In this document: positions 4,827-51,587 of the stretch, piece by piece
Layout of the letters: each line of letters begins with the position of its first letter
How positions within the stretch are numbered: the first letter of the stretch is position 1
Virus record (IMG/VR): IMGVR_UViG_3300043331_002222
Length of the DNA: 64,000 nt
DNA from: a virus
Reading direction: 5' to 3' (one strand)
Translations under genes and position numbers: made by a program
The notes under the pieces: model-generated
Seen by the model: only the letters and a program-made list of their open reading frames with translations
Databases searched by the model: none
Told to the model about the DNA's origin: nothing

Positions 4827-4855
4827 ATCTTACACCTACTGACCGATGACGTCCA
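4827..4855 (-). promoter_or_regulatory. Promoter TGGACG-N17-TAAGAT, leaderless for 4820
   Basis: -10 box ends 6 nt before the ATG. Confidence 0.7.
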
Positions 4856-5615
4856 GCCCCTGGCTCAAGCGATCGAACACGTCCGTCCTGGCCGGGGATG
4901 GCGAGAGCTCCGGCTTCCGGTTCGGTGTCCGGCTCCCCCGAGCGCTCTGGTGCGCTGCTGGGCTGTACCACCACGGCGACGGCCCAGCGAGGGGTCCGGA
5001 GGGCTGGGTGGGATCCCAGCCACCCCGGTAGAGGAGCGCGACGAGCTCCTCGTAGGCCGTCTGCCAGTGCAGGTCCACGACGGGCAGCCCCCGCTCCAAG
5101 AATGTTCGGCGGATCAACTGGACCCTGGCCCAGCTCCGCCGGCCCGTGTCCTCGAGGTTGACCCCCTGGCGGGTCGGCCCCTGCCCGTTGTTGCGGACCA
5201 GCAGCCGAGGGAGGACCACGTTGACCGGGGTGTCCAGGAACGCGAACACGACCGGCAGGCCCGGCGCCCGCTCCTCCTGGAGGGTCCTCCACAGCTCCTC
5301 GCTCCGACCGATCACCAGGCTGGCCATCAGCCCCTCGAACAGCACGTGCTTGTGCCGGAGGCAGTGCCAGTGCAGCCACTCCCAGACCTTCTGGGTGGTC
5401 CCGCTCGAGAAGGCGTCCAGCCCCCCGGTCTTCGTGGTGGCCGAGTAACCGCCGAGGACGGCGAGGTCACCGGGGAGGAGCTGGGCGGTCAGCTTCGGGC
5501 GGAGCTTGTTCCACCCCCCCTCGTAGAGCTTGTCCACCGGCGGGTAGTCCCGCAGGAGCCGAGTCACGACCGAGGACTTCCCCGAGCAGCTCGAGCCCCG
5601 TACCTGTACGATCAC
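4836..5615 (-). CDS. P-loop nucleotide kinase, 5-hydroxymethyluracil-DNA-kinase-like
   Basis: N-terminal IVQVRGSSCSGKSS, AVLGGY..GGLD, VLFEGL, FAFLDTP..V..RLLVRN pattern; near an AADT-like gene; start moved to GTG 5615. Confidence 0.7.
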   Translation of the reverse strand: MIVQVRGSSCSGKSSVVTRLLRDYPPVDKLYEGGWNKLRPKLTAQLLPGDLAVLGGYSATTKTGGLDAFSSGTTQKVWEWLHWHCLRHKHVLFEGLMASLVIGRSEELWRTLQEERAPGLPVVFAFLDTPVNVVLPRLLVRNNGQGPTRQGVNLEDTGRRSWARVQLIRRTFLERGLPVVDLHWQTAYEELVALLYRGGWDPTQPSGPLAGPSPWWYSPAAHQSARGSRTPNRKPELSPSPARTDVFDRLSQGLDVIGQ

Positions 5616-5773
5616 CGTGGCCTCCTCGAGACCAGCCAGCTCCGGTGACGAGTGAACAGCCGGAAGTCGTAGCCCCACTCCCCCGTCTGGTACTCGACCC
5701 CGAGGCGGCGCCTACCACCCCAGTGGACGTAGAACGAGTGGAAGCTGTTCTTGGGTGGTCGGTCGAGGATCAC
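5612..5773 (-). CDS. Small hypothetical protein (53 aa, not in ORF track)
   Basis: VILDRPPKNSFHSFYVHW...; GTGA overlaps on both sides. Confidence 0.45.
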   Translation of the reverse strand: MILDRPPKNSFHSFYVHWGGRRRLGVEYQTGEWGYDFRLFTRHRSWLVSRRPR

Positions 5774-5970
5774 AGCGCATCTCCCCTCGTCCCGGTCCGC
5801 TTGCCAGCGCCCCGCCGGAGCTGTTCTGGGCCACCCTCGGTCGGGTCCGCCCCGCTACCGACCTCGGGCAGCCCCCGGGTGTCGCGCAGCCAGCGCCGGC
5901 CCTCCCGCCAGGTACGATGCCAGCTGCGAGGGCGCTTCGTGCCTTTGTGGTGCTGGCGCCGCCGGCTCAC
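5770..5970 (-). CDS. Small Arg-rich hypothetical protein
   Basis: Fills the gap with GTGA overlaps. Confidence 0.4.
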   Translation of the reverse strand: MSRRRQHHKGTKRPRSWHRTWREGRRWLRDTRGLPEVGSGADPTEGGPEQLRRGAGKRTGTRGDAL

Positions 5971-6422
5971 GTTTGGCCGTTCAGGAACAGGGTCGGCGCC
6001 GGGAGGCTGACCAACCACTCGTACTGGGCCTGGTTGGCTAGAGCGTTCGGCCGGCGAGAGCGCACCCAGCTGGCAGCCTGCGCCCCGCTGTAGCAGTAGC
6101 GCTCCCGGATGACCAGGGCTGCGACGAGGCAGGCTCGGTTGCGCCCAGCGTCACAGTGGACAGCGGTCCGGTAGCCCGCCTCGAGGAAGAACTGGACCTG
6201 CCGCACGGCGATCTGGAGCCCCTCCTCGTCGGGCTTCTTGCCGTCAGGTAGCGCGATGTGGCTCCACAGCCCCAGCTTCTGGAAGTCAGCGAGGACGTCG
6301 TCGGGCGGGACCCGGTGGTTGACGCTCAGGAGCGCTGTCACCCCAAAGCGAGTCAGCTGGTCCAGCCGGGTGGGTCGGCTCATGACCCAGAGCTGGTCGT
6401 CTACCTGCCAGGGACCGCTCAC
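5967..6422 (-). CDS. Dual-specificity/tyrosine-type phosphatase
   Basis: HCDAGRNRAC (HCx5R) loop, IALPDG general-acid loop, C-terminal RPNALAN..Q. Confidence 0.85.
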   Translation of the reverse strand: MSGPWQVDDQLWVMSRPTRLDQLTRFGVTALLSVNHRVPPDDVLADFQKLGLWSHIALPDGKKPDEEGLQIAVRQVQFFLEAGYRTAVHCDAGRNRACLVAALVIRERYCYSGAQAASWVRSRRPNALANQAQYEWLVSLPAPTLFLNGQT

Positions 6423-6667
6423 TTCGTTCCTCGCTTCCAGCGCTGGGCAGGCTTGGTACCCCACTGCACGTACTGCTCTCGCCACTCGTGATCGCGATGC
6501 TCGGTCCACCGGCTGAGCCTCTCTCGCAGTGACCCGTCAGCGACGTCGCGCTGCCAGGTGCGCCCGTTGCCGAGTAGCCAGGAGGTCAGGATTTCCCACG
6601 GTCCCCGGTACATGATCTGGAGGTAGAAGCGTCGCTGTTCGACGCTCCCCTTCACTCGGTTCGTCAT
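6419..6667 (-). CDS. Hypothetical protein
   Basis: AAGGAGACGAG-ATG start; overlaps the next gene. Confidence 0.55.
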   Translation of the reverse strand: MTNRVKGSVEQRRFYLQIMYRGPWEILTSWLLGNGRTWQRDVADGSLRERLSRWTEHRDHEWREQYVQWGTKPAQRWKRGTK

Positions 6668-6704
6668 CTCGTCTCCTTCTCGTCGTGCGGTCCAGCCTAC
6701 CACG

Positions 6705-7715
6705 TTAGTAGGCAACACCCTCGGGGTAGCGGGCGACCCAGAGGTCCTCGAGCTCCTTCCGCGGGCCGTTCCAACCGTTCACCTCGCCGAGCCACAGTGG
6801 GTCGAACACCTGCCGCCGCACGGTGTAGAAGCTGAAGTGCTCGAGCAGGTTGGTCTCCCACCGCGCCCAATAGTCCTCGGCCGTTCGGAAGAACATGAGC
6901 TCGCGGTCCTGTGAGCGGCCGGGGTACTTGTTCTGACCGCACGCCTGACGGTAGGTGCACAGCACCGTCTCGAGCTGGTACCAGTTCAGGTCGACGCCGC
7001 ACTCCTCGAGCCAAGCCTTGGTGACCTGTGCCAGGTCCTGCGCGATCGGGTCCGACAGCTTGGGAACCTGCTGCAGGGCTTCGGCGTGGCCCGGGAATAG
7101 CCGAGCCAGCGTCTTGCGGGGGTACTTGGCCCCGTCCGGCCGCATGTCGACCATCCGGGTCGCGAGCAGCCCCCGCTGGTAGAGGGTCTCGGTGGTCTTC
7201 ATCAGCGCGTAGCGGCCGAACCCCCAGGTCATCCCGTCGATGGAGTTCCACACGTCCTCGAACTGCTCCGGCCCCAGGTGTCGGACCACCGGCCAGTCGA
7301 CCTCGCACCACCGGCGCCAGGACTGCCACGCCTCGAAGAACCGCTGGCGACCCTTGACCGCTCGGCGCTCCTTGCGGATCGGCAGCCCCTCGCCCCAGTG
7401 CTCGTCGATCCACTTTGGAGAGAGGTCCAGCCCTCGCAGCAGCCAGTTCCACTGGGCCGCGGCCCCGGCGCAGGTGTAGCTGTTGACGAACGCGCCGGCC
7501 AGCAGCACGGCGGTCTCGTCGTCGAACGCCCGGAGGGCCTGGCTGGTCGTCCGGATCTGCGGGTCGGGTCCGCCGGCAGCCAGCTCCCACGTGACGTAGT
7601 CGAGGAACCAGAACCAGTGGTGGTTGCCATTGACCTGCGCCATGGACACGGGCTCGGCGAACCGCTGCCGCAGGTCAACGAGGCGCTCGAAGTCAGGTGG
7701 CGCTGTGATCGTCAC
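6705..7715 (-). CDS. Amino acid:DNA transferase-like protein (aGPT-Pplase2/AADT family, HhH glycosylase-like fold)
   Basis: GFGRYALMKTTETL and YQLETVLCTYRQ...KYPGRSQDRE motifs, C-terminal RRQVFDPLWLGEVNGWNGPRK; GGAGG RBS before GTG 7715. Confidence 0.75.
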   Translation of the reverse strand: MTITAPPDFERLVDLRQRFAEPVSMAQVNGNHHWFWFLDYVTWELAAGGPDPQIRTTSQALRAFDDETAVLLAGAFVNSYTCAGAAAQWNWLLRGLDLSPKWIDEHWGEGLPIRKERRAVKGRQRFFEAWQSWRRWCEVDWPVVRHLGPEQFEDVWNSIDGMTWGFGRYALMKTTETLYQRGLLATRMVDMRPDGAKYPRKTLARLFPGHAEALQQVPKLSDPIAQDLAQVTKAWLEECGVDLNWYQLETVLCTYRQACGQNKYPGRSQDRELMFFRTAEDYWARWETNLLEHFSFYTVRRQVFDPLWLGEVNGWNGPRKELEDLWVARYPEGVAY

Positions 7716-7971
7716 CTGCTGCCTCCTCCCGCCGGCGTAGCTCTTGGCGTACCCGGTCGTTGCTGGCGCTCGCAACGAACCAGACCAGCGCGACCAGTGC
7801 CGCGGTCAAGTACCACCGGAGGTCGCTCAACCAGATGCCGAGCAGTGACAACACGAACACCGCTACGAAGGCGACCCGGGTCACCCACTTGAAGATCACC
7901 CGAGACTGCTCGAGGCGGTCCGTCGTCGCTTCCCGGAGCATGCGCTCCGTCTCTGTCTTCCTGTCGTCCAC
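7693..7971 (-). CDS. Two-TM membrane protein
   Basis: Two hydrophobic helices; AAGGAG RBS. Confidence 0.65.
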   Translation of the reverse strand: MDDRKTETERMLREATTDRLEQSRVIFKWVTRVAFVAVFVLSLLGIWLSDLRWYLTAALVALVWFVASASNDRVRQELRRREEAAGDDHSAT

Positions 7972-7995
7972 GTCTCGTCTCCTTGGGTCGTCGAA

Positions 7996-8307
7996 CTACC
8001 GGCTGGGAACCGACCGCGGACCGCTAGCGGCCAGCACCTCGCGGTGCCTGAGCTGCTCGATCCGCTGCCGGCGCCGAGCGCGGCGGGCTGCGTGGAACGG
8101 CCAGACCACCACGCCGAGCAGCAGCCAGTAGCCGGCCACGACCATCCACACGGTCGTGATCAGCAGTAGGGCCAGGGGGAGCAGCGCTCCCCACCGCACG
8201 GCGGGGTGAACCTGGGGGTCCACCACCAGCTTCTGCCACAGCCGGCTGGCCGAGCCTCTGAAGGAGGCGGCCGACCGGGTGGCTTGCTCGCTCTTGAGCA
8301 TCACCAT
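7996..8307 (-). CDS. Membrane protein
   Basis: Long hydrophobic stretch; GAGGAG RBS before ATG 8307. Confidence 0.55.
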   Translation of the reverse strand: MVMLKSEQATRSAASFRGSASRLWQKLVVDPQVHPAVRWGALLPLALLLITTVWMVVAGYWLLLGVVVWPFHAARRARRRQRIEQLRHREVLAASGPRSVPSR

Positions 8308-12713: not shown

Positions 12714-13159
12714 TTCGAGCCCTCCTCTGGCTGGGGTGGTTCCTCCGAGCGGGGCTCCACCAGCTGGCAGAGGAGGGCAACGCCGGCCGTCGCATCCGAC
12801 GGCGCTTCGACATAGATCAGATGGAGATTGACAGCATGGCAACCCGAACCAACCGACACAGTGGCGAGGTCGACGTCATCGACGCTGCGGCCGCGCTCGA
12901 TGACCACGAGGAACCACCTGCCGTGATCGAGACGACCGCCGATCCTCTCCTGGAGGAGCCCGCCTTGGAGCCGCGCCCGATCGACGTCGTCGTGAACGTC
13001 CGGTTGGCGCGCACCGAGCACGGCGCTGACGCCATCTGCGTGTACCTGCCGCACAATGGCCGGCTGACCGCAGCTGAGGCCCAGGAGCTGATGATCGACC
13101 TCGACATCGCCAAGCAGCAGGTCGCCAGCATCCGCACCGCCTGCGGGTTCACGTCCTAG
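12710..13159 (+). CDS. Hypothetical protein
   Basis: GTGA-coupled; start uncertain. Confidence 0.55.
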   Translation: MIRALLWLGWFLRAGLHQLAEEGNAGRRIRRRFDIDQMEIDSMATRTNRHSGEVDVIDAAAALDDHEEPPAVIETTADPLLEEPALEPRPIDVVVNVRLARTEHGADAICVYLPHNGRLTAAEAQELMIDLDIAKQQVASIRTACGFTS

Positions 13160-13177
13160 AAGGAAGGAGCTGGGCCG

Positions 13178-13621
13178 GTGGTCATGTCCACCCACGTGCT
13201 GCGCGGTTGGGACGACGATGTCCAGCGCCCCACCGAGTACGACGTCACAGCGGAGCTGCTGGCGTCGGCCTCCACGCACCGTGACGACCACGTCCGGCTC
13301 GTGCACGACTCCGGAGAGCACGCTCCTCAGGGCACCCGCTGTTCAGCCTGTCGGTGGTTCGAGGTGTTCATCTACCGCGAACGTGGTGGGACGTGGGTGG
13401 TCCAGACCGTCGGGCGCAGCCTCGTGCCCGGCGAGGACGACCGCTACCGAGTTCACTTCTGCCCCACCCCCCGCCGCGTCATCGCGGCCCTGGTCCAGAC
13501 CCGCGGTGAGGACGTGTTCGTCCCCAACACCGCCAAGCGGGCGCTGGACCAGGCCGCGGACGCCGATCCCGTGCTGGCGGAGGCGGTCGACCAGTTGCTC
13601 GAAGACGGCCTCGCCTCGTGA
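13178..13621 (+). CDS. Hypothetical phage protein
   Basis: AGGAAGGAG RBS; CSACRWFEVFIYR...WVVQTVGRSLVPGE. Confidence 0.65.
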   Translation: MVMSTHVLRGWDDDVQRPTEYDVTAELLASASTHRDDHVRLVHDSGEHAPQGTRCSACRWFEVFIYRERGGTWVVQTVGRSLVPGEDDRYRVHFCPTPRRVIAALVQTRGEDVFVPNTAKRALDQAADADPVLAEAVDQLLEDGLAS

Positions 13622-13622
13622 C

Positions 13623-13892
13623 GTGGACGAGCGAACTCGACTGGCCGTACGGCTCAGGTCGCTGGCCGACTCCCTCGCTCCGTACCTCGTCAGCGAGAAG
13701 GGACTGCTCAACGAGGCCGCGGACGCTCTAGATAAGCGGCTGTGCTCCAAGTGCCACGAGTGGAAGGCACCCGACGAGTTCTACGGCCCCAACCGGAACA
13801 CGTGCAAGGCCTGCCACCCTCGCCGTGACCGTGACCAGAACACCAACTACATGCGGGAGTACCGAGCCCGTAAGGCTCGGAAGAGGAGATGA
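13623..13892 (+). CDS. Zinc-finger protein (CxxC...CxxC, endonuclease-VII/HNH N-terminal-like)
   Basis: KRLCSKCHEWKAPDEFY...TCKAC; start GTGGACGAG. Confidence 0.6.
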   Translation: MDERTRLAVRLRSLADSLAPYLVSEKGLLNEAADALDKRLCSKCHEWKAPDEFYGPNRNTCKACHPRRDRDQNTNYMREYRARKARKRR

Positions 13893-13898
13893 GACGAG

Positions 13899-14861
13899 AT
13901 GCTGACGATCATCGTCGAGGGACCTGACCTGGTGGGCAAGACCACCTTCGTTGACCAGCTGACCGAGGTCCTCGCCAAGAGGCACTTGAACCACGCCCGG
14001 CTGAAGGCGAGCCAGCCTGACCCACCTGACCGGGACCCCTACCAGGAGTACGAACACGCGCTCGACGCCCTGAACCTCGAGTCCATCGACGTAGTCGTCG
14101 CGGACCGCTGGCACTGGGGCGAGACGGTCTACGGCCCCATCTTCCGGGGCCGGGACCGTCTCGAGGGTGCTGGTTGGCGCCACGTCGAGCTGGCACTGCT
14201 CTCTCACGGGACCCTGGCGGTGTACCTACACCAGCCGACCGAGGTGCTCCGTGCCCGGTACGCCGCTCGGGGTGACGACTTCATCCAGGGTCACCACCTC
14301 GAGCAGATCCAGCAGGGGTACGAGTGGTGCCTCCGCAACACCGCCCTCCCCACCCTCTCCCTGATCGACCCGAGCCCCTACCTCGCCGAGACGGTGGTCC
14401 AGACCCTGTTCGACCTCACCGACAGTGGCGCGAGCTGTACGGCAGACGTGTTCACGAGCTACGTCGGACCGCAGCGGCCCCTGGCGGTCCTCGTCGGAGA
14501 ACGGCGGGGTGGTTACTCGCACCTCGGTGATCGGTTCGCGTTCACCCCCCGCAACAGCGGAGCGGGTCGGTGGCTGCTCGAGGCGCTCCCCGAGCACCTG
14601 TGGCGTCACGTCGGGCTGGTGAACTCCCTCGAGGACGACCTACGAGACGTGTGGCGCTTCACGGGCACGCCCCACCTGGTCGCTCTTGGCGAGACCGCGG
14701 CCAGAGAACTGAAGAAGGAGCGCCTGCCCCACGCTGCGGTCCCTCACCCCCAGTTCATCCGACGGTTCCTGCACTCGCAGCTGTCGAGCTACGGTGAGCT
14801 GATCGCCACCCTGATCGGCACCGAGCAGGACTGCCGCAGTTGGAGAGGAGCCACCACTTGA
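13899..14861 (+). CDS. dNMP (thymidylate) kinase fused to a degenerate UDG-like domain
   Basis: IIVEGPDLVGKTT, VVADRWHWGETVYG; C-terminal LVGER...AFTP...AGRWL...LVALGETA...VPHPQF. Confidence 0.8.
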   Translation: MLTIIVEGPDLVGKTTFVDQLTEVLAKRHLNHARLKASQPDPPDRDPYQEYEHALDALNLESIDVVVADRWHWGETVYGPIFRGRDRLEGAGWRHVELALLSHGTLAVYLHQPTEVLRARYAARGDDFIQGHHLEQIQQGYEWCLRNTALPTLSLIDPSPYLAETVVQTLFDLTDSGASCTADVFTSYVGPQRPLAVLVGERRGGYSHLGDRFAFTPRNSGAGRWLLEALPEHLWRHVGLVNSLEDDLRDVWRFTGTPHLVALGETAARELKKERLPHAAVPHPQFIRRFLHSQLSSYGELIATLIGTEQDCRSWRGATT

Positions 14862-14962
14862 AGAAGCTCGCCGAGCAGGCAGTCACTCTGGTCGTTGCCG
14901 GCTGCCTCATCGCCATCTTCCTCGCCGGCACGCTCCGGCTCGTTGACTGGATCTTGCCGTGA
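14858..14962 (+). CDS. Small membrane peptide (34 aa)
   Basis: TTGA and GTGA overlaps; one hydrophobic helix; GAGGAG RBS. Confidence 0.45.
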   Translation: MKKLAEQAVTLVVAGCLIAIFLAGTLRLVDWILP

Positions 14963-15816
14963 GGCGCTACGACCTGCCGGACCTGCGCACCGGCTACGTC
15001 ACGCTCTGCGACTTGCTCCGCCACACCGGCAAGCTCGTCGCTCCCCGTGGTCAGCGCACCCTCGAGGTCGAAGACGCCGTGATCACGGTCGAGGACCTGA
15101 GCGACACTCTCCCGATCGGGGTGGGCCGGGGTGTCAACCTGCAGTTCGCGGCTCTGGAGGCTCTGCAGCTGGTCAGCGGGCTGTCCACCCCCGAGCTCCT
15201 CGTTGCGGTCCGGCCCGAGTTCTTGAAGTACCTCGAGGCAGACGGTAGCCAGCACGGAGCCTACGGTTCCAGAGTCCACAGCCAGGCGTCCAACGTGGTT
15301 TACAAGCTGCGCCAGGACAATGACTCGCGTCAGGCCGTCATCACCCTGTGGAACCCGCTCATCGACAACGAGCCGGGCCACGAGGACTACCCGTGCACCA
15401 TCGCGCTGGGGTTCCGGGTCCGCAAGGACAAGCTCAACCTCAGTGTCACGATGCGCTCCAACGACGCGTGGCTCGGGGTCGCGTACGACGTGTTCCAGTT
15501 CACCCAGCTCCAGCACACCGTCGCCGCTGAGCTCGGAGTCGCAGTCGGTAGCTACACCCACACCGCCTGGAGCCTCCACCTCTACGAGCGGGACTGGGCC
15601 AAGGTCGAGGAGCTTCACGAGCCCAGCGGAGTCGTTCACAACCTCCCGCATGGCATCAGCCGCACTTTCGCGAGGAAGCTGCTGACCGAGCCACACACCA
15701 TCGGCGTGTTCGACGGGCTAGAGCACCAGGAGGGACTCCTCGCACCCGGTGACACCTGGTACGTCCACCAGGCCCGCAAGGCCTGGGACGCTTACTACGA
15801 ACGGAACCCACTGTGA
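14959..15816 (+). CDS. Thymidylate-synthase-fold enzyme, probably dCMP (hydroxy)methylase-type
   Basis: PRG, AYG, SRQAV, DYPCT, MRSNDAWLGVAYDVFQF, SLHLYERD; Asp at the E. coli Asn177-equivalent position. Confidence 0.85.
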   Translation: MRRYDLPDLRTGYVTLCDLLRHTGKLVAPRGQRTLEVEDAVITVEDLSDTLPIGVGRGVNLQFAALEALQLVSGLSTPELLVAVRPEFLKYLEADGSQHGAYGSRVHSQASNVVYKLRQDNDSRQAVITLWNPLIDNEPGHEDYPCTIALGFRVRKDKLNLSVTMRSNDAWLGVAYDVFQFTQLQHTVAAELGVAVGSYTHTAWSLHLYERDWAKVEELHEPSGVVHNLPHGISRTFARKLLTEPHTIGVFDGLEHQEGLLAPGDTWYVHQARKAWDAYYERNPL

Positions 15817-16340
15817 GTGACGAGACCCGCGCCGACTGGGACGAGACCTGGCTCGAGGTGGCCCGTACGGTCGCCAAGCGCAGCCGCTGCGAGCGGGACC
15901 AGGTCGGAGCCGTGATCGTGGACCCGCGCAACCGGATTGTCGCGACCGGGTACAACGGCCCACCGGCTGGCTTTCCCGCCGGTGTGGGCACGTTCGTCCG
16001 TGGTCAGCGGAACGAGTTCGCCAAGCAAGTCCGTGACTGTTCCTTCTTCTGCAAGCGGGCCATGCACGGACCATCCAGCGAGACCCTTCACTCGTACGTG
16101 GACTGCTGCGCTAACCACGCCGAGGTCAACGCCCTGAGCGTGTGCGACCGCTCCGTCCGAGAGGGCGGCACCCTCTACGTCTCGAGCGACGTGTGCATGA
16201 CCTGCGCGAAGATCATCGCGAACTCGGGGCTGGTCAGGGTCGTGGTCGGTGCCCGGACCGACCGGGAGTACCGCCGGGCCAGCGAGGGTTACGCCTTCAT
16301 GCGGATGTGTGGCATCACCGTCGAAGAGGTCCTGCCGTGA
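15813..16340 (+). CDS. dCMP deaminase
   Basis: RSRCERDQVGAVI, ATGYNG, HAEVNAL, CxxC zinc ligands (VCMTC). Confidence 0.9.
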   Translation: MSDETRADWDETWLEVARTVAKRSRCERDQVGAVIVDPRNRIVATGYNGPPAGFPAGVGTFVRGQRNEFAKQVRDCSFFCKRAMHGPSSETLHSYVDCCANHAEVNALSVCDRSVREGGTLYVSSDVCMTCAKIIANSGLVRVVVGARTDREYRRASEGYAFMRMCGITVEEVLP

Positions 16341-16543
16341 GGTTGAACCCCTTCCCGTGCGGGTCCTTCTTCCGTCCGTACCGCTACGACGTCGTCGCCG
16401 GGCCGGTCGAGCAGCACCCGACCAAGCCCGTAGAAGACTGCGAGCCGGTCACCGAGACCGGACCAGCGATGACCGTCTGGAGGTGTCAACGACCGTCATG
16501 TGGACACACGTGGCGCCAGTTCGGGTGGGTACACGTCACGTGA
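16337..16543 (+). CDS. Small Cys-containing hypothetical protein
   Basis: GTGA overlaps. Confidence 0.45.
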   Translation: MRLNPFPCGSFFRPYRYDVVAGPVEQHPTKPVEDCEPVTETGPAMTVWRCQRPSCGHTWRQFGWVHVT

Positions 16544-16734
16544 GCGAGCTCACCCTCTGCAACTACTGCAAGCTGCAACTGATCAACGAGGAGGCCAAGG
16601 CCCGGGGCGCGACCGTGACCGTCAAGGCCGAGCAGCTCCTCTCGACCATGGAACCCTGGCTGGCGGTCCGGATCAGCGACCGGCACCACGTCGAGTGCTG
16701 GATGATGGAGCTCACCCCAGAGTGCTCGTGCTAG
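16540..16734 (+). CDS. Small hypothetical protein
   Basis: GTGA overlap; LCNYC. Confidence 0.5.
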   Translation: MSELTLCNYCKLQLINEEAKARGATVTVKAEQLLSTMEPWLAVRISDRHHVECWMMELTPECSC

Positions 16735-17072
16735 CAGGTAGCCTCGTCCAGAGCTGGGGGTTCGTCTGGTTCGTCGGCTCGATGGCCGGCGTGGTGTTCC
16801 TCGTCTGGTACGAGCGGCACCTGCGCAACCGAGCGGTCCGTGACCACGTGATCCAGGAGTACGGCCAGGACGTGCCCGTCCAAGGTGCGATCTACGTCGA
16901 CAAGGCCGGTCAGATCGTGGACCCGGACCCCAGTGACGGCGACCAGTCCAGCGAACACACGGCCGCGAACTTACTCGAGCCGGTGGAGTGGCTGGAGGGC
17001 ACCGAGCCCGTCCGATGCGACCGCTGTGGCCGAGAGATGGAGCACCGGCAGGCGGAGGACCACACGTGTTGA
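16728..17072 (+). CDS. Membrane-anchored protein with C-terminal CxxC
   Basis: N-terminal hydrophobic helix; CDRCG. Confidence 0.5.
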   Translation: MLAGSLVQSWGFVWFVGSMAGVVFLVWYERHLRNRAVRDHVIQEYGQDVPVQGAIYVDKAGQIVDPDPSDGDQSSEHTAANLLEPVEWLEGTEPVRCDRCGREMEHRQAEDHTC

Positions 17073-18841
17073 ACGACGTCCAGGTCCACCTCGTCGACTC
17101 GCTCAGCGAAGCGGTCGCCTTCGCGAGCTGGCTGCAGGGCCGGACCGAAGTCGCGATCGACACCGAGACGACCGGTCTGACCTACCAGGACCGGGTGCGC
17201 ATCCTCCAGGTCGGTGACGACCAGACCGCCTGGGTCCTCCCCGTGGAAGAGCCCCGCTCGTGGAGCGGCCTGGCCCTCGAGTACCTCCAGCCCTACCAGG
17301 GCTGGATCATCGGACACCACTGGAAGTTCGACGCCACGAAGCTGAAGCGAACGCTCGGGCTCGAGTGGGGCTGGCACCAGGTCCACGACACGATGCTCCA
17401 GTCTCGGGTGCTCGAGCCCCTCCGGTCCGCGGCGCTGAAGAACCTGGCCAGTCGCTACGTCGACAGCCGGGCGAACGTCGCGCAGCAGGACCTCGCCGAG
17501 CGGATGCAGGGTGGCAAGCACACGTGGGAGTCCGTGCCGCTCACCTTCGACCCGTACTGGTTCTACGCTGGTCTGGACTGCGTGTGGACGTACGGAGTCC
17601 ACCAGCAGCTCCTGCCCCGGGTCCAGGCAGTCAGTCCCCTAGCCTACGACCTCGAACGCGGGGTCTCGGCGGTCTGTGCTCGGATGGAAGCCCACGGAGC
17701 GCTGGTCGACCAGGTCGCTGCGGAAGAGTACCGCACCCAGCTCGACCGGTACGTCCGGGAGGCGGCCACGTGGTGCGTGGAGAACTACGGGGTGAAGCCC
17801 GGGTCGAATGCCGAGGTGGTCCGGGTCCTCGAGGGCGAGGGGTTCGAGTTCGACAAGGTCACCCGCACCGGTGCCAAGGCACTCGACAAGGAGGTCCTCG
17901 GCGAGATCGACCACCCCCTGGCCCGGGTAGTCCTCGCTCGGCGCCAGGCCCAGAAGGTCGCCTCGACGTTCCTGCGGCACTTCATCGACGACGTCGACGA
18001 GGACAGTCGGCTCCACCCGAACGTCAACACGTGCGAGGCCCGGACCTCTCGCATGTCGATGGACTCTCCGAACCTCCAGCAGCTGCCCCGGGTGGACGAG
18101 CGCAACCCACCCTCGATGATGGTCCGAAACTGCATCATCAGTGGTCCGGGTCACACCTTGCTGATGTGCGACTTCAACCAGATCGAGTGGCGGCTGTTCG
18201 CCTCGCTGGCCAAGGACGACAAGCTCCAGACCGCCTTCCAGGCTGACGACTTCTTCACAGAGATGGTCCGCCAGGTCTTCCAGGACCCGGAGGCGACCCG
18301 CAAGGACCCACGCCGGCAGACCACCAAGAACGCGATGTACGCCAGGATCTACGGCGCGGGCACCGCGAAGTTCGCCTGGACCGCCGGCATCAGCGAGGAC
18401 GAGGCTCAGCGCTTCACCGCGCTGCTCGACTTCACGTACCCCTCGATCCGCCAGTTCACCCGACGGGTCGAGAACACCGCCCAGGCTCGCCGTCACGACG
18501 AGGGTGAGGCGTACGTCCGCAGCCCATTGACCCGCCGGCGCTTCGTGATCGACGACGACTCGACGTACAAGCTGGTCAACTACCTGATCCAGGGCACAGC
18601 GGCCGAAGTGCTGAAGATGAAGCTCATCGAGCTCGCCGCCGCTGGCCTCGGTGACTACCTGGTCTGCCCCGTGCACGACGAGGTGATCCTCGAGGTGCCG
18701 GACGAGGACGTGGACGACGTGGCCCACACCGTACTGCGGATCATGAACGACCAGACTCTGTTCGCGGTCCCCATCACGGCCAGTCTCTCCACTGGCAAGC
18801 GGTGGGGTGAGAAGGTAGATTGGCAACCCACGACGAGATGA
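17066..18841 (+). CDS. polA: DNA polymerase, family A, with 3'-5' exonuclease
   Basis: ExoI DTETTGL; PNLQQLP; motif A DFNQIEWR; motif B KNAMYARIYG; motif C VHDEV; GGAGG RBS before GTG 17066. Confidence 0.95.
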   Translation: MLNDVQVHLVDSLSEAVAFASWLQGRTEVAIDTETTGLTYQDRVRILQVGDDQTAWVLPVEEPRSWSGLALEYLQPYQGWIIGHHWKFDATKLKRTLGLEWGWHQVHDTMLQSRVLEPLRSAALKNLASRYVDSRANVAQQDLAERMQGGKHTWESVPLTFDPYWFYAGLDCVWTYGVHQQLLPRVQAVSPLAYDLERGVSAVCARMEAHGALVDQVAAEEYRTQLDRYVREAATWCVENYGVKPGSNAEVVRVLEGEGFEFDKVTRTGAKALDKEVLGEIDHPLARVVLARRQAQKVASTFLRHFIDDVDEDSRLHPNVNTCEARTSRMSMDSPNLQQLPRVDERNPPSMMVRNCIISGPGHTLLMCDFNQIEWRLFASLAKDDKLQTAFQADDFFTEMVRQVFQDPEATRKDPRRQTTKNAMYARIYGAGTAKFAWTAGISEDEAQRFTALLDFTYPSIRQFTRRVENTAQARRHDEGEAYVRSPLTRRRFVIDDDSTYKLVNYLIQGTAAEVLKMKLIELAAAGLGDYLVCPVHDEVILEVPDEDVDDVAHTVLRIMNDQTLFAVPITASLSTGKRWGEKVDWQPTTR

Positions 18842-19140
18842 AGGAGACCCAGATGGACGACCGGATGCGCCCCGGCCTCGGTGGAGTCGGCACGGGACGT
18901 CCCGCCCGACTGCACGAGGCTCCAACGCCCACCCCACCGGCCCAGCCCAAGACGATCGTCGACATGTTCTCGAAGAGCGAGGACCCCGAGGTCCTCGAGG
19001 CCCGGCGTCGGGAGGCCCGAGCTCGAGCCCAGCGCCACGAGTGGCTGAGCTTCGGAGTGATCGCCCTCGTGGTCTGGCTGATACTGATCGCTGTGGCGGT
19101 CCTGCCGCCCCTCGTGTTCCACCTCTGGAAGACGTTCTAG
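18820..19140 (+). CDS. Membrane protein
   Basis: C-terminal TM helix; the start may be 18853 (AAGGAG RBS). Confidence 0.6.
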   Translation: MATHDEMKETQMDDRMRPGLGGVGTGRPARLHEAPTPTPPAQPKTIVDMFSKSEDPEVLEARRREARARAQRHEWLSFGVIALVVWLILIAVAVLPPLVFHLWKTF

Positions 19141-19338
19141 GTGCCAGAGACCCACGTCTCCGCCTTCAAGGTGAAGATGCAGGACGGGCAGCCCTCGGTC
19201 TGCGTGTGCAAGGGCTGCGGTGACGTCTGGTCGCACAAGCAGACGCTGCTCGAGGCCGAGGGCAACGGCGTGGACCCCGACGAGGCTTACCACCAGTTCG
19301 TCGAGGAACACAGCCCGCACACGGAGCGTCCCGAGTGA
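19141..19338 (+). CDS. Small hypothetical protein
   Basis: CVCKGCG; coupled to neighbours. Confidence 0.5.
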   Translation: MPETHVSAFKVKMQDGQPSVCVCKGCGDVWSHKQTLLEAEGNGVDPDEAYHQFVEEHSPHTERPE

Positions 19339-19778
19339 TCATCGTCGGCGTGGACCCTGGCCAGGTGACCGGTGTCGCCTGGTGGGACACCGAGACCGAG
19401 GCGTTCACGGTCACGGCCCAGTCCCCCGCGGATGGCGCGGTGATCAACCTGTGGCTCTGGCTCGAGCGGTTCGACCGGGAGGGTCACGAGGTCGAGGTCG
19501 CCTGCGAGCAGTTCGTGATCGGCCCCCGCACGCTCCGAGCCACGAGGCAGTACGACGCGCTGCACGTCGCCGGGGCGCTGAAGTTCAAGTGCACCCAGTT
19601 CTCGGTGCCCTACCACGAGTACCGGGCCAGTGACACCAAGCGCCTCGTGAATGACCAGGTCCTCCGCCAGTGCGGGGGCTACACCAGCAGCGACCACGTG
19701 AACGACGCCGAGCGGGTCGCACTGACTCACCTGGCGAACGTCCTCCCCAAGCAGTTCCATGCCGCGCGCCGAGGTTGA
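19335..19778 (+). CDS. RuvC-like Holliday junction resolvase
   Basis: IVGVDPGQVTG, VACEQF, HVNDAERVA. Confidence 0.8.
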   Translation: MIIVGVDPGQVTGVAWWDTETEAFTVTAQSPADGAVINLWLWLERFDREGHEVEVACEQFVIGPRTLRATRQYDALHVAGALKFKCTQFSVPYHEYRASDTKRLVNDQVLRQCGGYTSSDHVNDAERVALTHLANVLPKQFHAARRG

Positions 19779-21618
19779 CTACGACCGCGGTCGCGTAGTG
19801 TTGGAGACTTCGTGGGCTGAGAAGGACCTGGCCCGGCAGGTCCCCGGGATGAACTGGGACGGCCGCGAGAAGGTCTGGCACGCTCCGCTCTCGTGGGGGA
19901 CGTGCGTGACGCTGCGCGGCGTGTTCGGCGACCGCCTCGAGGTCGGCCCGCTCCTCCGACAGTGGGCAGCTGACGCTCGGGCGCAGTGGATCGACTACGG
20001 CCTGCTCTTGCGAGAGTCTACGGCCGCGGACCTCTATGACGCGGCGGGTGAGAAGTGGAACCCGGACCCACGGCTGTACCCCCCGCAGCAAACCGGAGTC
20101 GCGTTCCTGGCCCTTCCCGACGGCGGCGTCCTGCTGGCTGACCAGATGGGCGTGGGCAAGACACCTCAGGCCCTCGTGGCGCTGCGAGCGCTGCCCGATA
20201 CGCTCCCGGGGCTGGTCATCTGCCCGAACAGCGTCAAGGGCCACTGGGCCAACGAAGTGCCCACCTGGTTCCCCGAGGCTCACCCGTACGTAGTGAACGG
20301 TGGTGCCCAGTCCAGGCGCAAGGTCCTGCTCGAGGCCAGCGAGGACCCGCAGGCGCTGGTCCTGATCCACTTCGACGTCCTCCGGCTGCACTCCCGCCTC
20401 GCGGCGTACGGGTCGATCCGGCTCTCCCGCTGTCAGGAGTGCGGCGGCCACGACGAGCGGATCACCCCGACGAGGTGCGAGGTCCACCCCAAGGAGCTGA
20501 ACCACCTCGACTTCCGCACGGTGATCGTCGACGAGGCGCACCGGATGAAGGACTCCAAGGCCAAGCAGACCCGCGCGGCCTGGGCGGTCCTGCACCAGCC
20601 CTCGATCACCCGGCGCTGGGCACTGACCGGTACGCCGATCGCGAACAACGTCGGTGACCTGTGGTCGATCATGCACGGGATCGCACCGGCTGACTACCCG
20701 ACTCGCTCCGCGTTCATCGACCGGTTCGCCCTGCTGGCGTGGAACCGGTACGCGGCGCTGGACATCGTGGGCGTCCGGCCCGACACGGCCGAGGAGTTCC
20801 ACAAGATCCTGGACCCCCGTATGCGCCGGATGCTGAAGGCGGTGGTGCTGCCGTTCCTGCCGCCGAAGGTTCGGGAGGTCCGCGAGGCGCCCATGGCCAC
20901 GAAGCAGGCCCGGGCGTACCGAGCGATGGAAGAGCACCTGCTCGCCGAACTGGACGACGGAGACGTCGTGCTCGCCACGACCAACCTCGTGAAGGCCCTG
21001 CGCCTGGTCCAGTTCAGCTCGAGCTACTGCGAGGTCGATCCCGAGACGAACCAGCTCCGCCTCAGCGAGCCCAGTCCCAAGCTGGACGTGCTCGAGGAGG
21101 TCTTGCAGGAGCTGGGACCGGACCGGCAGGTCGCAGTGTGCGCAGCCTCCCGCCAGCTGATCGAGATGGCCGCGGCCAGGTTCAACGCGAAGGGGGTCAG
21201 CTACCGCCTGTTGACCGGCAAGGTCCCGCAGCACGAGCGGCAGCAGAACCTGAACGAGTTCCAGGCCGGTGACGCGCAGGTGATGCTGTTCACGATCGCC
21301 GCCGGCGGCGTGGGCGTCAACATGTCGGCCGCTGACACCATCGTGTTCCTGCAGCGCAGCTGGTCCATGCTCGAGAACGTCCAGGCCGAGGACCGGGTGC
21401 ACCGGGTCGGCTCGGAGCGACACGAGTCCGTGACGGTGGTCGACATCATCGCACCAGACACCATCGAGGTCCGCCAGCTGCAGAAGCTCCGAGAGAAGGC
21501 GACCCGCCTCGAGGAGATCGTCCGGGACCGTGACCGGCTGGCCAAGGCGGGGTACTCGACCGCCGAACTAGACCACGAAGAGCAGCAGCTCCTGGCTGGA
21601 CACCTCCTTGGCGGATGA
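19759..21618 (+). CDS. SNF2-family helicase
   Basis: LADQMGVGKT, IVDEAHRMK, ALTGTPI, GGVGVNM, QAEDRVHRVG. Confidence 0.93.
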   Translation: MPRAEVDYDRGRVVLETSWAEKDLARQVPGMNWDGREKVWHAPLSWGTCVTLRGVFGDRLEVGPLLRQWAADARAQWIDYGLLLRESTAADLYDAAGEKWNPDPRLYPPQQTGVAFLALPDGGVLLADQMGVGKTPQALVALRALPDTLPGLVICPNSVKGHWANEVPTWFPEAHPYVVNGGAQSRRKVLLEASEDPQALVLIHFDVLRLHSRLAAYGSIRLSRCQECGGHDERITPTRCEVHPKELNHLDFRTVIVDEAHRMKDSKAKQTRAAWAVLHQPSITRRWALTGTPIANNVGDLWSIMHGIAPADYPTRSAFIDRFALLAWNRYAALDIVGVRPDTAEEFHKILDPRMRRMLKAVVLPFLPPKVREVREAPMATKQARAYRAMEEHLLAELDDGDVVLATTNLVKALRLVQFSSSYCEVDPETNQLRLSEPSPKLDVLEEVLQELGPDRQVAVCAASRQLIEMAAARFNAKGVSYRLLTGKVPQHERQQNLNEFQAGDAQVMLFTIAAGGVGVNMSAADTIVFLQRSWSMLENVQAEDRVHRVGSERHESVTVVDIIAPDTIEVRQLQKLREKATRLEEIVRDRDRLAKAGYSTAELDHEEQQLLAGHLLGG

Positions 21619-25276: not shown

Positions 25277-25762
25277 GTGGACCTCAAGGAGTTCCTCGGC
25301 CTGCAGCAGGAGCTGCAGGTCGAGGCCTTCCACCGAGACCCCACCGTCCTGCGGGGAGCGGAGCGGTCAGCGTTCATCCTCTGGAACGCGTACGCCCTCG
25401 AAGACGAGGTGCACGAAGCGACCAGCGAGGTAAGCTGGAAGCCGTGGGCACAGGGCGACCGCTTCGACCGGGACGCGTTCCTCGGTGAGCTGGTCGACGC
25501 ACTGCACTTCCTCGGCAACCTCCTTCTCACCACGGTCGAACCCGACGGGTCGATCGACTCTCTCGCCAAGGAAGTCGGTGAACGGTACAAGGCCAAGCGC
25601 CAGCGGAACCTGGAGCGGCAGCTCGAGGGGTACGACGGCGTGTCGACCAAGTGCCCAGGCTGCAAGCGAGCCCTCGATACTGCCGAGGCAACGGTGACGG
25701 TGGACGGCTGCCTGTTCTGCCGTGGCTGCGGCCGGTTGCTCCAGGAGCCGGCACCCACGTGA
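25277..25762 (+). CDS. All-alpha (dimeric dUTPase/MazG-like) dNTP pyrophosphohydrolase with C-terminal zinc finger
   Basis: EDEVHE...SWKPW, ELVDALHF, KRQRNLERQ; CPGC...CRGC. Confidence 0.8.
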   Translation: MDLKEFLGLQQELQVEAFHRDPTVLRGAERSAFILWNAYALEDEVHEATSEVSWKPWAQGDRFDRDAFLGELVDALHFLGNLLLTTVEPDGSIDSLAKEVGERYKAKRQRNLERQLEGYDGVSTKCPGCKRALDTAEATVTVDGCLFCRGCGRLLQEPAPT

Positions 25763-26604: not shown

Positions 26605-27828
26605 ATGCGGGCGGTCGACTGCCAGGGGTTCGCCGGGGGCTTCACCACGGGGGTGGTCCGGGCCGGCTTCAAGCTGGTCCACAAGGCGGAGATGGCGGCC
26701 GGCTTTGGCGTCGTCAACTGCACCAGTAACCGTCACGTCCTCGGCTACGACTGGCAGGTGCAGACCTGCGACCCGAGCGAGTGGGAGCCCGTCGAGGCGG
26801 AGTTCGTCTTCGGCAACCCGCCCTGCTCGGGTTTCAGCCTGCTGTCCAACCGCTCCTTCAGGGGCGTCGACAGCCCGATCAACCACTGCATGCACGCTCT
26901 CGTGGGGTACGCGGGGGCGATCGACCCCCAGGTGATCGCCTTCGAGAGCGTCGCGCAGGCGTACAAGGAGGGGCTGCCGCTCATGCGTCAGCTCCACCAG
27001 AAACTGATGGCGCAGACCGGCCACGACGACTGGCAGCTGTACCACGTGCTCCACAACAACCTCTCGGTCGGTGGTTGCGCCGTACGGCGGCGCTACTTCT
27101 GGGTGGCCAGTCGCGTTCCGCTCGAGTTCAGCTACCCCGAGCTCTCGTACCTCCCCACCGTCCGTGACGCGATCCAGGACCTCGAGCACCTGGCGCTGAC
27201 GTGGGAACTCCAGCCGTATGGCAGCCCGGACTTCGGCACGAGGTGGAGCCGCCAGCTCCGTGCACCCGGCGGGTACACGGACGGCCACCACCCGCTCCCC
27301 GACGACACCGGTGACCGCCGGCTGTGGGCGCTCCGCGAGCACAGTGAGCCCTGGGAGGAGGGAGAGACCCTGCGGGACTGGGCGCGCCGGACCTACGACC
27401 GGTTGGGCACCCTCCCCGAGCCGTGGACCCAGCAGCAGCTGCAGCGCCACGTCGAGAAAGAGTGGGACGGGTTCGGGTTCCACCAGCCGAAGCGGTGGCG
27501 CTACGACCGGCAGGCCCACGTGATCACCGGTGGCAGCCCGGGCAGCGTCGTGCACCCGACACAGTACCGCCACCTGACCATGCGCGAAGTCGCCCGGATC
27601 ATGGGCTTCCCGGACACCTGGCGGATCGCGCCCTACCGTGACAGCAGGACCATGAAGGAGAGCTGGGGCAAGGGCATCCCCGTCCACAGCGGCCTGTGGC
27701 TGGCGCGCTGCGTGCGCGCTGCCCTGGAGGGACGGCAGCCCGAGGGTGAACTGGCACCACACCAACTGACGCTGGACCAAGAGCACATCGTCGACGTGAC
27801 CAAGCCCCACCTCCGGGAGGTAGCCTGA
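26605..27828 (+). CDS. C5-cytosine DNA methyltransferase-fold protein with atypical cofactor motifs
   Basis: Motif IV GNPPCSGFS, VI FESV, VIII RRRYF, IX REVARIMGFP, X GKGIP, motif I DCQGFAGGF. Confidence 0.85.
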   Translation: MRAVDCQGFAGGFTTGVVRAGFKLVHKAEMAAGFGVVNCTSNRHVLGYDWQVQTCDPSEWEPVEAEFVFGNPPCSGFSLLSNRSFRGVDSPINHCMHALVGYAGAIDPQVIAFESVAQAYKEGLPLMRQLHQKLMAQTGHDDWQLYHVLHNNLSVGGCAVRRRYFWVASRVPLEFSYPELSYLPTVRDAIQDLEHLALTWELQPYGSPDFGTRWSRQLRAPGGYTDGHHPLPDDTGDRRLWALREHSEPWEEGETLRDWARRTYDRLGTLPEPWTQQQLQRHVEKEWDGFGFHQPKRWRYDRQAHVITGGSPGSVVHPTQYRHLTMREVARIMGFPDTWRIAPYRDSRTMKESWGKGIPVHSGLWLARCVRAALEGRQPEGELAPHQLTLDQEHIVDVTKPHLREVA

Positions 27829-51063: not shown

Positions 51064-51587
51064 GAGGTAAACCTACCAGCGTAAGCGCGCACCACGTACT
51101 GCCAGCGCTGGTTCGGGTCGACGATCGGCCAACCTCCCTCGATGCGGTCGAGGCCCAGGTCCCAGACCCGCGGCCAGCCCGCCTCGAGCAGGAGCTTCTC
51201 CACGAGCGGGCCGCTGGTCTCCCACTGGTGGACGTCCCCGGCCCACCGGCCCGCTCCGTGCTTGATCGCCTCAAGGGTACCCCAGCTCCAGTCGAATGTC
51301 CCATCAGCGATCATCTGCTCGGCGAGCGGGACGTCCGGTCCGACCGCGACGAGGACGCAGCCCTCGCTGTGCGCGCACCAGAGCAGCTGCTCGCAGAGCC
51401 CGAAGCAGTCGTCCCGGGTGAGGTGCTCGAACAGGTGCCCAGCGTAGACGTGAGTGACCGCGCTCCGCCAGTGCTCGGGGAGCGGCCCGGTCAGATCGAC
51501 CCGCTCGTCCACTCGGTGGGGCGTCTGGAAGTCGACGTTCACCCAACCGGGCTGGTAGCGGTCAGCGCAGCCGAGGTTCAGCCGCAC
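51060..51587 (-). CDS. Small class I SAM-dependent methyltransferase-like protein
   Basis: RLNLGCA...GWVNVD, YAGHLFEHL. Confidence 0.8.
   Translation of the reverse strand: MRLNLGCADRYQPGWVNVDFQTPHRVDERVDLTGPLPEHWRSAVTHVYAGHLFEHLTRDDCFGLCEQLLWCAHSEGCVLVAVGPDVPLAEQMIADGTFDWSWGTLEAIKHGAGRWAGDVHQWETSGPLVEKLLLEAGWPRVWDLGLDRIEGGWPIVDPNQRWQYVVRAYAGRFTS

Follow-up and report, generated by a model that had tools for sequence, protein, structure and literature searches.

In bacteriophage T4 the dCMP hydroxymethylase gp42 is paired with a dCMP deaminase whose product, dUMP, goes into thymidylate synthesis. In the viromes analyzed by MetaGPA, 70% of the dCMP deaminase genes on cytosine-modified contigs lie no more than 3 kb from a thymidylate synthase (TS) homologue, mostly with Asp177; a PRA-PH pyrophosphatase and DNA polymerase I (PolA) are other frequent neighbors, and the combination of Asp177 TS, deaminase, PRA-PH and PolA is a mark of experimentally cytosine-modified contigs (bioRxiv 10.1101/2024.12.05.627091). 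Several of these phage deaminases convert 5-methyl- and 5-hydroxymethyl-dC nucleotides (bioRxiv 10.1101/2024.12.05.627091). Phosphate-activated post-replicative hypermodification has so far been demonstrated for thymidine only, and in PaMx11 gp46 a Glu-Thr pair binds the metal that contacts thymine O4 (PMC11472151). Here we describe a 64,000 nucleotide stretch of viral DNA (IMG/VR record IMGVR_UViG_3300043331_002222; the whole stretch is called the window) that carries a TS homologue of the cytosine type coupled to a dCMP deaminase (14959-16340) together with a trio of AADT, phosphatase and DNA kinase genes (4836-7643, minus strand) related to thymidine hypermodification. We found no earlier report in the literature of a cytosine-type hydroxymethylase that occurs repeatedly alongside the kinase/AADT genes of thymidine hypermodification. 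The genes under comparison are listed below.

13899-14861, plus strand: deoxynucleoside monophosphate (dNMP, thymidylate-type) kinase with a C-terminal domain that may resemble uracil-DNA glycosylase (UDG); phrog_761 thymidylate kinase, E 1.4e-18
14959-15816, plus strand: TS-family dCMP 5-hydroxymethylase (predicted), 285 aa, GTG start; PF00303, E 1e-21
15813-16340, plus strand: dCMP deaminase, T4-cd-like, 175 aa, GTG start; PF00383, E 3.5e-18; phrog_174, E 2.7e-40
25277-25762, plus strand: all-alpha NTP pyrophosphatase (dimeric dUTPase/MazG type); PF08761, E 2.9e-8; phrog_18650, E 1.9e-32
26605-27828, plus strand: C5-cytosine DNA methyltransferase homologue; PF00145, E 1.2e-15
6705-7643, minus strand: amino acid:DNA transferase (AADT; aGPT-Pplase clade 2), divergent, frame open upstream to 7775; PF18724, E 4.6e-4
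5967-6509, minus strand: dual-specificity (Cys-X5-Arg) phosphatase; PF00782, E 2e-9; HCDAGRNR motif
4836-5678, minus strand: P-loop DNA kinase, related to the 5-hmdU DNA kinases (5-HMUDK); GSSCSGKS P-loop and tblastn matches

The TS homologue is predicted to be a dCMP 5-hydroxymethylase

Residues 165-181 of the TS homologue (MRSNDAWLGVAYDVFQF) align without gaps to E. coli ThyA (QRSCDVFLGLPFNIASY) and place Asp177 on Asn177, as a preliminary description of the locus had stated. The numbering of the two proteins coincides for C146, R166, S167, D169, G173, D177, H207 and Y209, and further key residues are E67 (E. coli E58), R124 (R126'), D143, T147 and M165. C146 and E67 were invariant among the aligned homologues, giving the catalytic Cys146 and Glu58 of the TS fold. 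Asp177, Thr147 and Met165 were invariant across 120 of the 120 closest database homologues, and because of this invariance Asp177 reads as a property of the clade and not as chance or a sequencing error. S167 and R124 were also invariant in this clade, Asp169 was kept and invariant, and Asp143, which lies in an EDYPC motif three residues ahead of Cys146 at the position of E. coli Leu143, was invariant in 46 aligned homologues.

These residues were compared to published rules for substrate choice. Asp177 selects dCMP (PMC8670742; PMC13326640 section 24), and Asn177Asp turns TS to dCMP while the reverse change turns T4 gp42 to dUMP (cited in PMC8670742, PMC13326640). At positions 147/165/177 the window enzyme and T4 gp42 both have T/M/D, as compared to H/Q/N in ThyA and N/N/N in Asn177-type 5-hydroxymethyluracil (5hmU) enzymes, and D177 and M165 are present in the MilA alignment as they are in the window enzyme. 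The contrast between Asp in T4 gp42 and Asn in dUMP hydroxymethylases, made in the preliminary description, held for SPO1, SP10, PaMx11 and the M6-like SN1, and the claim of a cytosine-type enzyme gained support from Asp177, Thr147, Met165 and the further residue rules. A dUMP hydroxymethylase of the SPO1 gp29 / PaMx11 gp51 type, which needs N177, N147 and N or C at 165, does not match the D, T and M of the window enzyme. Asn at 169 is the mark of flavin-dependent 5-hydroxy-dCMP synthases (PMC13326640 section 28), and an enzyme of this kind (RB69 gp48 type) was rejected as the window enzyme keeps Asp169. MilA owes its preference for CMP to Ala and Lys, which take the places of Ser167 and Arg126' of TS (PMC5175136). 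With Ser167 and Arg124 the window enzyme should therefore be of the deoxyribo type, and by these published rules would not be a CMP enzyme.

The nature of the product was assessed using residue 143, phylogeny, gene content and structure. In TS the bulky Leu143 keeps water out and leads to a methyl product, and an acidic residue at 143 is typical of hydroxymethylases (PMC13326640 section 24). In a maximum-likelihood tree of the TS family, a check proposed in the preliminary description, the XP12 and PaMx74 dCMP methylases joined E. coli ThyA (support 98/91), whereas the window clade (99/97) stood apart from these methylases, within the group holding the dUMP hydroxymethylases (88/85). DHFR adjoins the TS-deaminase pair in XP12 and PaMx74, because a methylase that produces dihydrofolate requires it, and there is none in the window. 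Membership in the XP12-type dCMP methyltransferases was rejected on the different clade, the NVPCP motif as compared to DYPCT in the window, and the lack of DHFR in the window. The best sequence match among solved structures was MilA (E 5e-20, as compared to 7e-15 for the best TS). The AF2 model of the TS homologue (pLDDT 94.5) matched MilA with a TMq of 0.80-0.84 over ~290 columns and TS and T4 gp42 with ~0.6. Asp143, the phylogeny, the absence of DHFR and the MilA-like fold point to a hydroxymethyl and not a methyl product. Together, the residues and the model make it very probable that the TS homologue is a dCMP 5-hydroxymethylase. Neither the TS homologue nor the deaminase is of a new kind, and Asp177 is a well-established diagnostic in this field.

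The deaminase, kinase and pyrophosphatase complete a T4-like gene set

The GTG start of the deaminase overlaps the TS stop as GTGA, and the zinc and catalytic motifs (H102-A-E104, C128-x-x-C131) are intact, bearing out the coupling of TS homologue and dCMP deaminase noted in the preliminary description. The deaminase aligned over its full length with T4 cd (1vq2; E 3e-12), including a Cys-rich insertion (~residues 54-100). This insertion is common to the deaminases adjoining other Asp177 enzymes (DSL-LC01, Sixama, AXL3 and the locus L013) and is lacking in the XP12, PaMx74, PaMx11 and SN1 deaminases. The motifs and the T4-type insertion together place the protein in the dCMP deaminase class (PF00383, T4 cd-like). 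As compared to the 5mC/5hmC-selective deaminases (mSCD-B5 class), which prefer 5-substituted dC nucleotides, the window deaminase adjoins an Asp177 enzyme; it is only 27-31% identical to the XP12/PaMx74 deaminases, and the insertion differs. The coupling of TS homologue and deaminase needs no new chemistry because T4 pairs gp42 with such a deaminase. Nor is the pair alone new, because such a cluster has been published as characteristic of cytosine-modified phages, and the window fits this architecture of Asp177 TS, deaminase, PolA and pyrophosphatase.

The gene directly upstream (13899-14861) is predicted from its sequence to encode a kinase for a modified dNMP. The kinase part spans residues 1-160 and is followed by a C-terminal domain of ~155 aa. 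In DSL-LC01 (34% identity over 320 aa) and AXL3 (gp29), the gene immediately preceding the Asp177 TS encodes a homologue of the full-length protein. The Atlas model of the C-terminal domain (14391-14861, residues 165-320) gave TM scores of 0.66-0.79 against the UDG superfamily, including phage PolA-UDG fusions, and a sequence search of this domain against PDB chains gave no match. The UDG-like fold is assigned solely from these Atlas structural neighbors and is offered as a lead only. GERRGG and HPQF in this domain sit at what we take to be the expected places of family-4 UDG motif A and motif B. The long kinase form was also seen conserved upstream of the Asp177 TS genes of two further loci, L023 and L069. 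Between the kinase and the TS gene, a hydrophobic open reading frame of 34 codons (14858-14962) bridges the gap, its TTG start overlapping the kinase stop (TTGA) and its stop overlapping the TS start (GTGA); this may be a very small gene coupled to its neighbors or a chance frame. For the pyrophosphatase (25277-25762), T4 gp56 was the sole match among those compared (29% over 85 aa; E 1e-5 with a very small database), making it a candidate dCTPase or dUTPase that would clear the competing dNTP.

The AADT, phosphatase and kinase trio keeps its catalytic residues

The AADT on its own scored 20.4 bits against PF18724, under the curated cut-off of 26.2 bits, and PF18724 was found in 22 of 30 AADT homologues. 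All of the PaMx11 gp46 active-site residues are kept in the window protein (D24, Y51, E92, R94, K150, E243, T244, C247 and E265). Its homologues and the columns of the catalytic Cys, the Glu and the metal site thus assign it, at the level of sequence, to the AADT family. Compared by BLASTP with the clade-1 and clade-2 aGPT-Pplases of SN1, the AADT gave no significant alignment, a short ETVLC motif being the sole match, and an AADT query of the phage collection gave no match. A residue switch between cytosine and uracil recognition was sought in the AADT at the PaMx11 gp46 positions and none was found.

The tblastn matches of the DNA kinase in the phage collection were confined to Yua/M6-like phage kinases and PaMx11 gp49, at 26-33% identity, and its orthologues in related loci have PF18748 or PF18751. 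The gene at 4836-5678 therefore appears to encode a P-loop DNA kinase related to 5-HMUDK, although the homology is distant. PaMx11 gp49 (L009 11986-12555), a verified 5-hmdU DNA kinase, and its PHROG, phrog_800, are misannotated as terminase small subunit. A Cys-X5-Arg phosphatase lies between AADT and kinase in nearly all of the ~55 related loci; we found no mention of it in the literature on thymidine hypermodification, and it might remove unreacted 5-phosphomethyl groups. The catalytic residues are intact in all three proteins of the trio.

The cytosine-type enzyme recurs with the trio in several lineages

IMG/VR was scanned with an alignment of the window AADT subfamily, yielding 55 loci, nearly all with phosphatase and kinase directly downstream of the AADT. 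The source of the hydroxymethyl-pyrimidine was then sorted within ±10 kb of the trio.

Asn177-type source: 31 loci (22 distinct AADT sequences); deaminase in 1; C5-methyltransferase in 0 of 31
TET/JBP with ParB source: 3 loci; deaminase none seen; C5-methyltransferase in 0 of 3
Asp177-type source, window included: 9 loci (7 distinct); deaminase in 7, directly after the TS gene; C5-methyltransferase in 8 of 9

TET/JBP with ParB is a published class of T-dioxygenase (PMC13229309). Among the trio loci having a TS homologue (n=40), 31 were of the Asn177 type and 9 of the Asp177 type. The preliminary description had pointed out that the precursor enzyme is at odds with the thymidine-hypermodification genes, and this mismatch is real: Asn177 is found in the characterized 5-HMUDK/AADT systems and in 31 of the 40 loci, and the Asp177 enzyme with the trio is a minority state that recurs. 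The combination was found in at least three lineages, and the AADTs linked to Asp177 enzymes occupy two or more distinct positions in the AADT tree.

Two of the loci carry the combination as contiguous genes. In L023 the run is C5-methyltransferase (7097-8251), myo-inositol-1-phosphate synthase, HAD hydrolase, AADT, phosphatase, 5-hmdU-kinase homologue, dNMP kinase and Asp177 TS, and in L069 it is AADT, phosphatase, DNA kinase, C5-methyltransferase, dNMP kinase and Asp177 TS. The L023 record is 92 kb and 100% complete, the L069 record is 106 kb and 83% complete, and each has one TS homologue. A PF00383 deaminase was not found in either whole record. The myo-inositol-1-phosphate synthase and HAD hydrolase of L023 (8310-10966) stand immediately upstream of the AADT. 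This arrangement suggests inositol as the group attached to the base by the L023 transferase. A C5-methyltransferase was present in the whole records G001, G002 and G006 and was not found in the TET-type whole records G004 and G005, each of which is about half complete. A Tet_JBP search of G001 and G002 gave no match, but neither did the control genomes, which makes this negative uninformative.

A proposed pathway to modified cytosine and its alternatives

In the explanation that we prefer, and put forward tentatively as a whole, the TS homologue would act as a folate-dependent dCMP 5-hydroxymethylase in which Cys146 attacks C6 of dCMP and Asp177 recognizes cytosine by its N3/N4 face. Hydration of the C5 methylene intermediate would follow, with the acidic Asp143 in place of the water-excluding Leu143 of TS. 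Together with the upstream dNMP kinase and the gp56-like NTP pyrophosphatase this would form a T4-like pre-replicative pathway that brings 5-hydroxymethylcytosine (5hmC) into phage DNA. The T4-cd-like deaminase would by default serve the uracil/thymine branch, from dCMP to dUMP and on to dTMP through a host enzyme, as genes for ThyA, ThyX and DHFR are absent from the window. The trio (4836-7643) would act on hydroxymethyl groups present in DNA, phosphorylating 5hmC so that the phosphate can be replaced by a nucleophile to give a C5-substituted methylcytosine. We infer the substrates, the products and the base modified by the trio from what was observed directly, namely the fold, the diagnostic residues, the gene order and the recurrence. 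The parts of this pathway differ in strength. 5hmC is probably present in virion DNA. That the trio acts on it is possible, a little short of an even call, and it is somewhat more doubtful that the outcome is C5-(substituted-methyl)cytosine made by post-replicative phosphate-activated hypermodification in at least three lineages, with inositol the likely donor in L023. Action of the trio on 5hmC, one of the two options in the preliminary description, is favored by L023 and L069, where the Asp177 enzyme and the trio share one operon and no deaminase was detectable. Further, the deaminase belongs to the T4 type, which balances nucleotide pools, and the AXL3 and MetaGPA data suggest modified cytosine in genomes that hold this module. 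We found no report of a 5hmC DNA kinase or of an aminoacyl-cytosine in the literature, and the 2018 5-HMUDK paper makes no mention of a trial on 5hmC DNA.

Several observations weigh against this pathway. The characterized AADT/5-HMUDK systems all act on 5hmU, and their known sources are dUMP hydroxymethylases or dioxygenases (PMC8989533, PMC13229309, PMC13458397). The window AADT keeps the Glu-Thr metal pair that serves thymine O4 in PaMx11 gp46 (PMC11472151) with no sign of retuning to cytosine, and in the AADT tree it is sister to a TET/ParB-linked AADT (support 100/97), with active-site residues common to both. The deaminase comes right after the TS gene in 7 of the 9 Asp177-type loci. A C5-cytosine methyltransferase accompanies 8 of these 9 loci, which is odd if cytosine is fully replaced, and the L023 enzyme has Asn at 143, as in XP12. 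In the other pathway raised in the preliminary description, dCMP is hydroxymethylated and the deaminase turns 5hm-dCMP or 5hm-dCTP into a 5hm-dU nucleotide that replaces dT. The trio would then have 5hmU as its substrate, as in PaMx11, M6 and ViI, and the Asp177 enzyme and deaminase would be a two-step stand-in for a dUMP hydroxymethylase. We consider this unlikely, though it accounts for the translational coupling of deaminase and TS gene, for the difference in deaminase adjacency between Asp177-type (7/9) and Asn177-type (1/31) trio loci, and for the unchanged AADT active site with its O4-contacting metal site. The trio is otherwise fed by 5hmU sources, either Asn177 enzymes or ParB/TET dioxygenases (PMC13229309), and the co-occurring C5-methyltransferase implies that unmodified cytosine persists. 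There is also partial precedent by analogy: seven Asp177-linked phage deaminases gave 5hmdU in the DNA of E. coli given 5hm-dC nucleotides, and one phage deaminase deaminated 5hmdCTP in vitro (bioRxiv 10.1101/2024.12.05.627091). However, no deaminase accompanies the Asp177 enzyme and the trio in L069 or in the complete L023 record, and adjacency of TS and deaminase is general in phages that have no trio (DSL-LC01, Sixama, AXL3 and PW916) and so is not specific to it. The window deaminase is T4-cd-like and not of the XP12/PaMx74 type, and restriction enzymes cut AXL3 DNA at AATT and TTAA but are blocked at G/C sites (PMC7504290). A mixed outcome, with 5hmC plus some 5hmU in the DNA, is possible. 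In the literature that we found, neither action of such a trio on 5hmC nor deamination of hm-dC as its source of hm-dU is described.

It is quite unlikely that the window holds two unrelated systems, with the TS homologue, deaminase and dNMP kinase forming a plain T4-like 5hmC pathway and the trio acting elsewhere, being promiscuous for both 5hm-pyrimidines, or being a relic. The two gene sets do lie ~7 kb apart on opposite strands, and isolates carry the Asp177 module without the trio, as the AADT query of the phage collection was empty and the kinase query found only Pseudomonas-type phages, but the combination is shared by at least three lineages, with its genes adjoining in L023 and L069, all three trio proteins have intact catalytic residues, and the window has no other source of hydroxymethyl-pyrimidine (no TET, no second TS). 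A scheme as in XP12, where the enzyme makes 5-methyl-dCMP and the deaminase turns 5-methyl-dC nucleotides into dT nucleotides, shares the arrangement of Asp177 enzyme and adjacent deaminase seen in XP12/PaMx74, and 5 of the 7 TS homologues assayed made 5mdCMP (bioRxiv 10.1101/2024.12.05.627091). We judge it very improbable for the window, as position 143 is Asp and not the Asn of XP12/PaMx74, position 147 is Thr and not Pro, the enzyme lies outside the ThyA/XP12 clade with no DHFR and with its nearest fold in the hydroxymethylase MilA, and a methyl product would leave kinase and AADT without a substrate. Least probable of all, and hardly to be expected, is a dUMP enzyme despite Asp177, that is, a thymidylate synthase or dUMP hydroxymethylase to which the deaminase merely supplies dUMP. 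Relatives are annotated as thymidylate synthase or, in PW916, deoxyuridylate hydroxymethyltransferase, but these annotations are automatic; a deaminase feeding a dUMP hydroxymethylase is the scheme of SPO1 and SH-Ab 15599 (PMC8989533, PMC13458397), but the correlated positions 147, 165 and 177 split the window clade from all verified dUMP enzymes, and the exchange of residue 177 switches TS to dCMP and T4 gp42 to dUMP (cited in PMC8670742 and PMC13326640). The preliminary description was supported on the cytosine-type enzyme and its mismatch with the trio, and had overlooked the published signature of the pair, the T4 precedent and the choice between a methyl and a hydroxymethyl product.

Gene content and environmental distribution of the window

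The window has a G+C content of 66-71%, and genes were called by third-position G+C. It reads as most of a metagenomic tailed-phage genome, and 66,166 bp is the longest contig with window proteins. On the plus strand, 13.9-21.6 kb holds the thymidylate-kinase-like protein (320 aa), TS homologue, dCMP deaminase, DNA polymerase I, a RuvC-like protein and an SNF2 helicase, in that order. The identical kinase-TS-deaminase-PolA-RuvC-helicase order is found in Actinomycetia phage DSL-LC01, and Gordonia phage Sixama has it interrupted by insertions. When 13000-19000 was compared with 50,697 phage records by megablast, there was no match. Near-identical DNA to 13000-21000 (>80% of sampled words) was detected in 9 soil/rhizosphere metagenome runs from 2020 and 2025, with partial presence in 15 further soil/rhizosphere runs, and the window phage is widespread in soil. 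Counted together, near-identical DNA was present in at least 20 such runs; all 24 exist as contigs only, so that they give no modification signal in the form of base-specific miscalls.

The window was also searched by tblastn for DHFR, TET, ThyX, the PaMx11 FAD lyase and acetyltransferase, the M6-type PLP and radical-SAM enzymes and the T4 beta-glucosyltransferase, with no significant match, and a second TS or ThyA was not found in it. An NDP-hexose C-methyltransferase, GT-A-like glycosyltransferases and a GT1 glycosyltransferase occur among head and tail genes (49882-53465 and 31009-32067, minus strand). A role in 5hmC glycosylation was weighed for the glycosyltransferases at 31009-32067 and 52204-53465, and they were left out of the pathway, as they are sited among tail/head genes beside the sugar C-methyltransferase; actinophage virion-protein glycosylation is more likely than DNA glycosylation. 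A MuF-domain head protein of 1106 aa (55712-59032, minus strand) has an N-terminal 2H (LigT-like) phosphoesterase domain.

Significance of the combination

Taken alone, the TS homologue and deaminase are one more case of a known and widespread phage strategy of cytosine replacement. If the trio decorates 5hmC, it would represent a new family of cytosine hypermodifications and a source of new enzymes for 5hmC labelling, and if hydroxymethyl-dC nucleotides are deaminated instead, the locus would represent a new pre-replicative route to 5hmU DNA. The labels thymidylate synthase and terminase small subunit mask such enzymes in many actinophage and Pseudomonas phage genomes. The Asp177 enzyme of PW916 (L007 3280-4098) is mislabelled as deoxyuridylate hydroxymethyltransferase.

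Comparison with known systems

T4 has the same enzyme set as the window (gp42, the gp1 dNMP kinase, the gp56 dCTPase/dUTPase and cd). T4 gp42 and the window TS homologue share Cys146, Asp177, Thr147, Met165 and an acidic residue at 143, both deaminases have the Cys-rich insertion, and the window pyrophosphatase matches gp56 weakly. However, the window TS homologue is only ~22% identical to gp42 and sits on a very long separate branch. Unlike T4, the window has no td phage TS, no DHFR and no identified DNA glucosyltransferase, its kinase appears to have an extra UDG-like domain, and it has the AADT trio that T4 is without.

MilA, the CMP 5-hydroxymethylase of mildiomycin biosynthesis (PDB 5b6d, 5jnh), was the top sequence and structure match, including the C-terminal helical region, and like the window enzyme it has Asp at 177 and 143 (PMC13326640). 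It differs by Ala and Lys in place of Ser167 and Arg124, residues of ribo/deoxyribo selection (PMC5175136), and serves antibiotic and not DNA synthesis. In XP12 and PaMx74 an Asp177 TS is followed at once by a PF00383 deaminase, with a pyrophosphatase/hydrolase nearby, as in the window. Unlike the window enzyme, their TS homologues are ThyA-like (Asn143, Pro147 and Leu165), have DHFR beside them and yield a methyl product, and their deaminases are without the T4-type insertion and 27-31% identical to that of the window.

The post-replicative enzymes of the PaMx11, M6/Yua, ViI, SP10 and PhiW-14 systems are homologous to the P-loop DNA kinase and AADT of the window, and the window AADT has the full catalytic set of the PaMx11-type systems, including the essential Cys and Glu. 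The precursor enzymes of the PaMx11/M6-type systems have Asn177, Asn147 and Asn165, whereas the window enzyme has Asp, Thr and Met. The same long kinase-Asp177 TS-deaminase module is carried by the cultured phages AXL3 (Stenotrophomonas), DSL-LC01, Gordonia Sixama, Forza and GMA2; unlike in the window, no AADT or 5-HMUDK homologue was found in these five phages, and AXL3 has its own ThyX. AXL3 combines an Asp177-type enzyme with the homologous long kinase, a pyrophosphatase and a deaminase, and its DNA withstands 35 of 37 restriction enzymes, being cut by AATT and TTAA cutters only (PMC7504290). By analogy, this restriction pattern fits a phage DNA in which cytosine is modified and A/T sites stay accessible.

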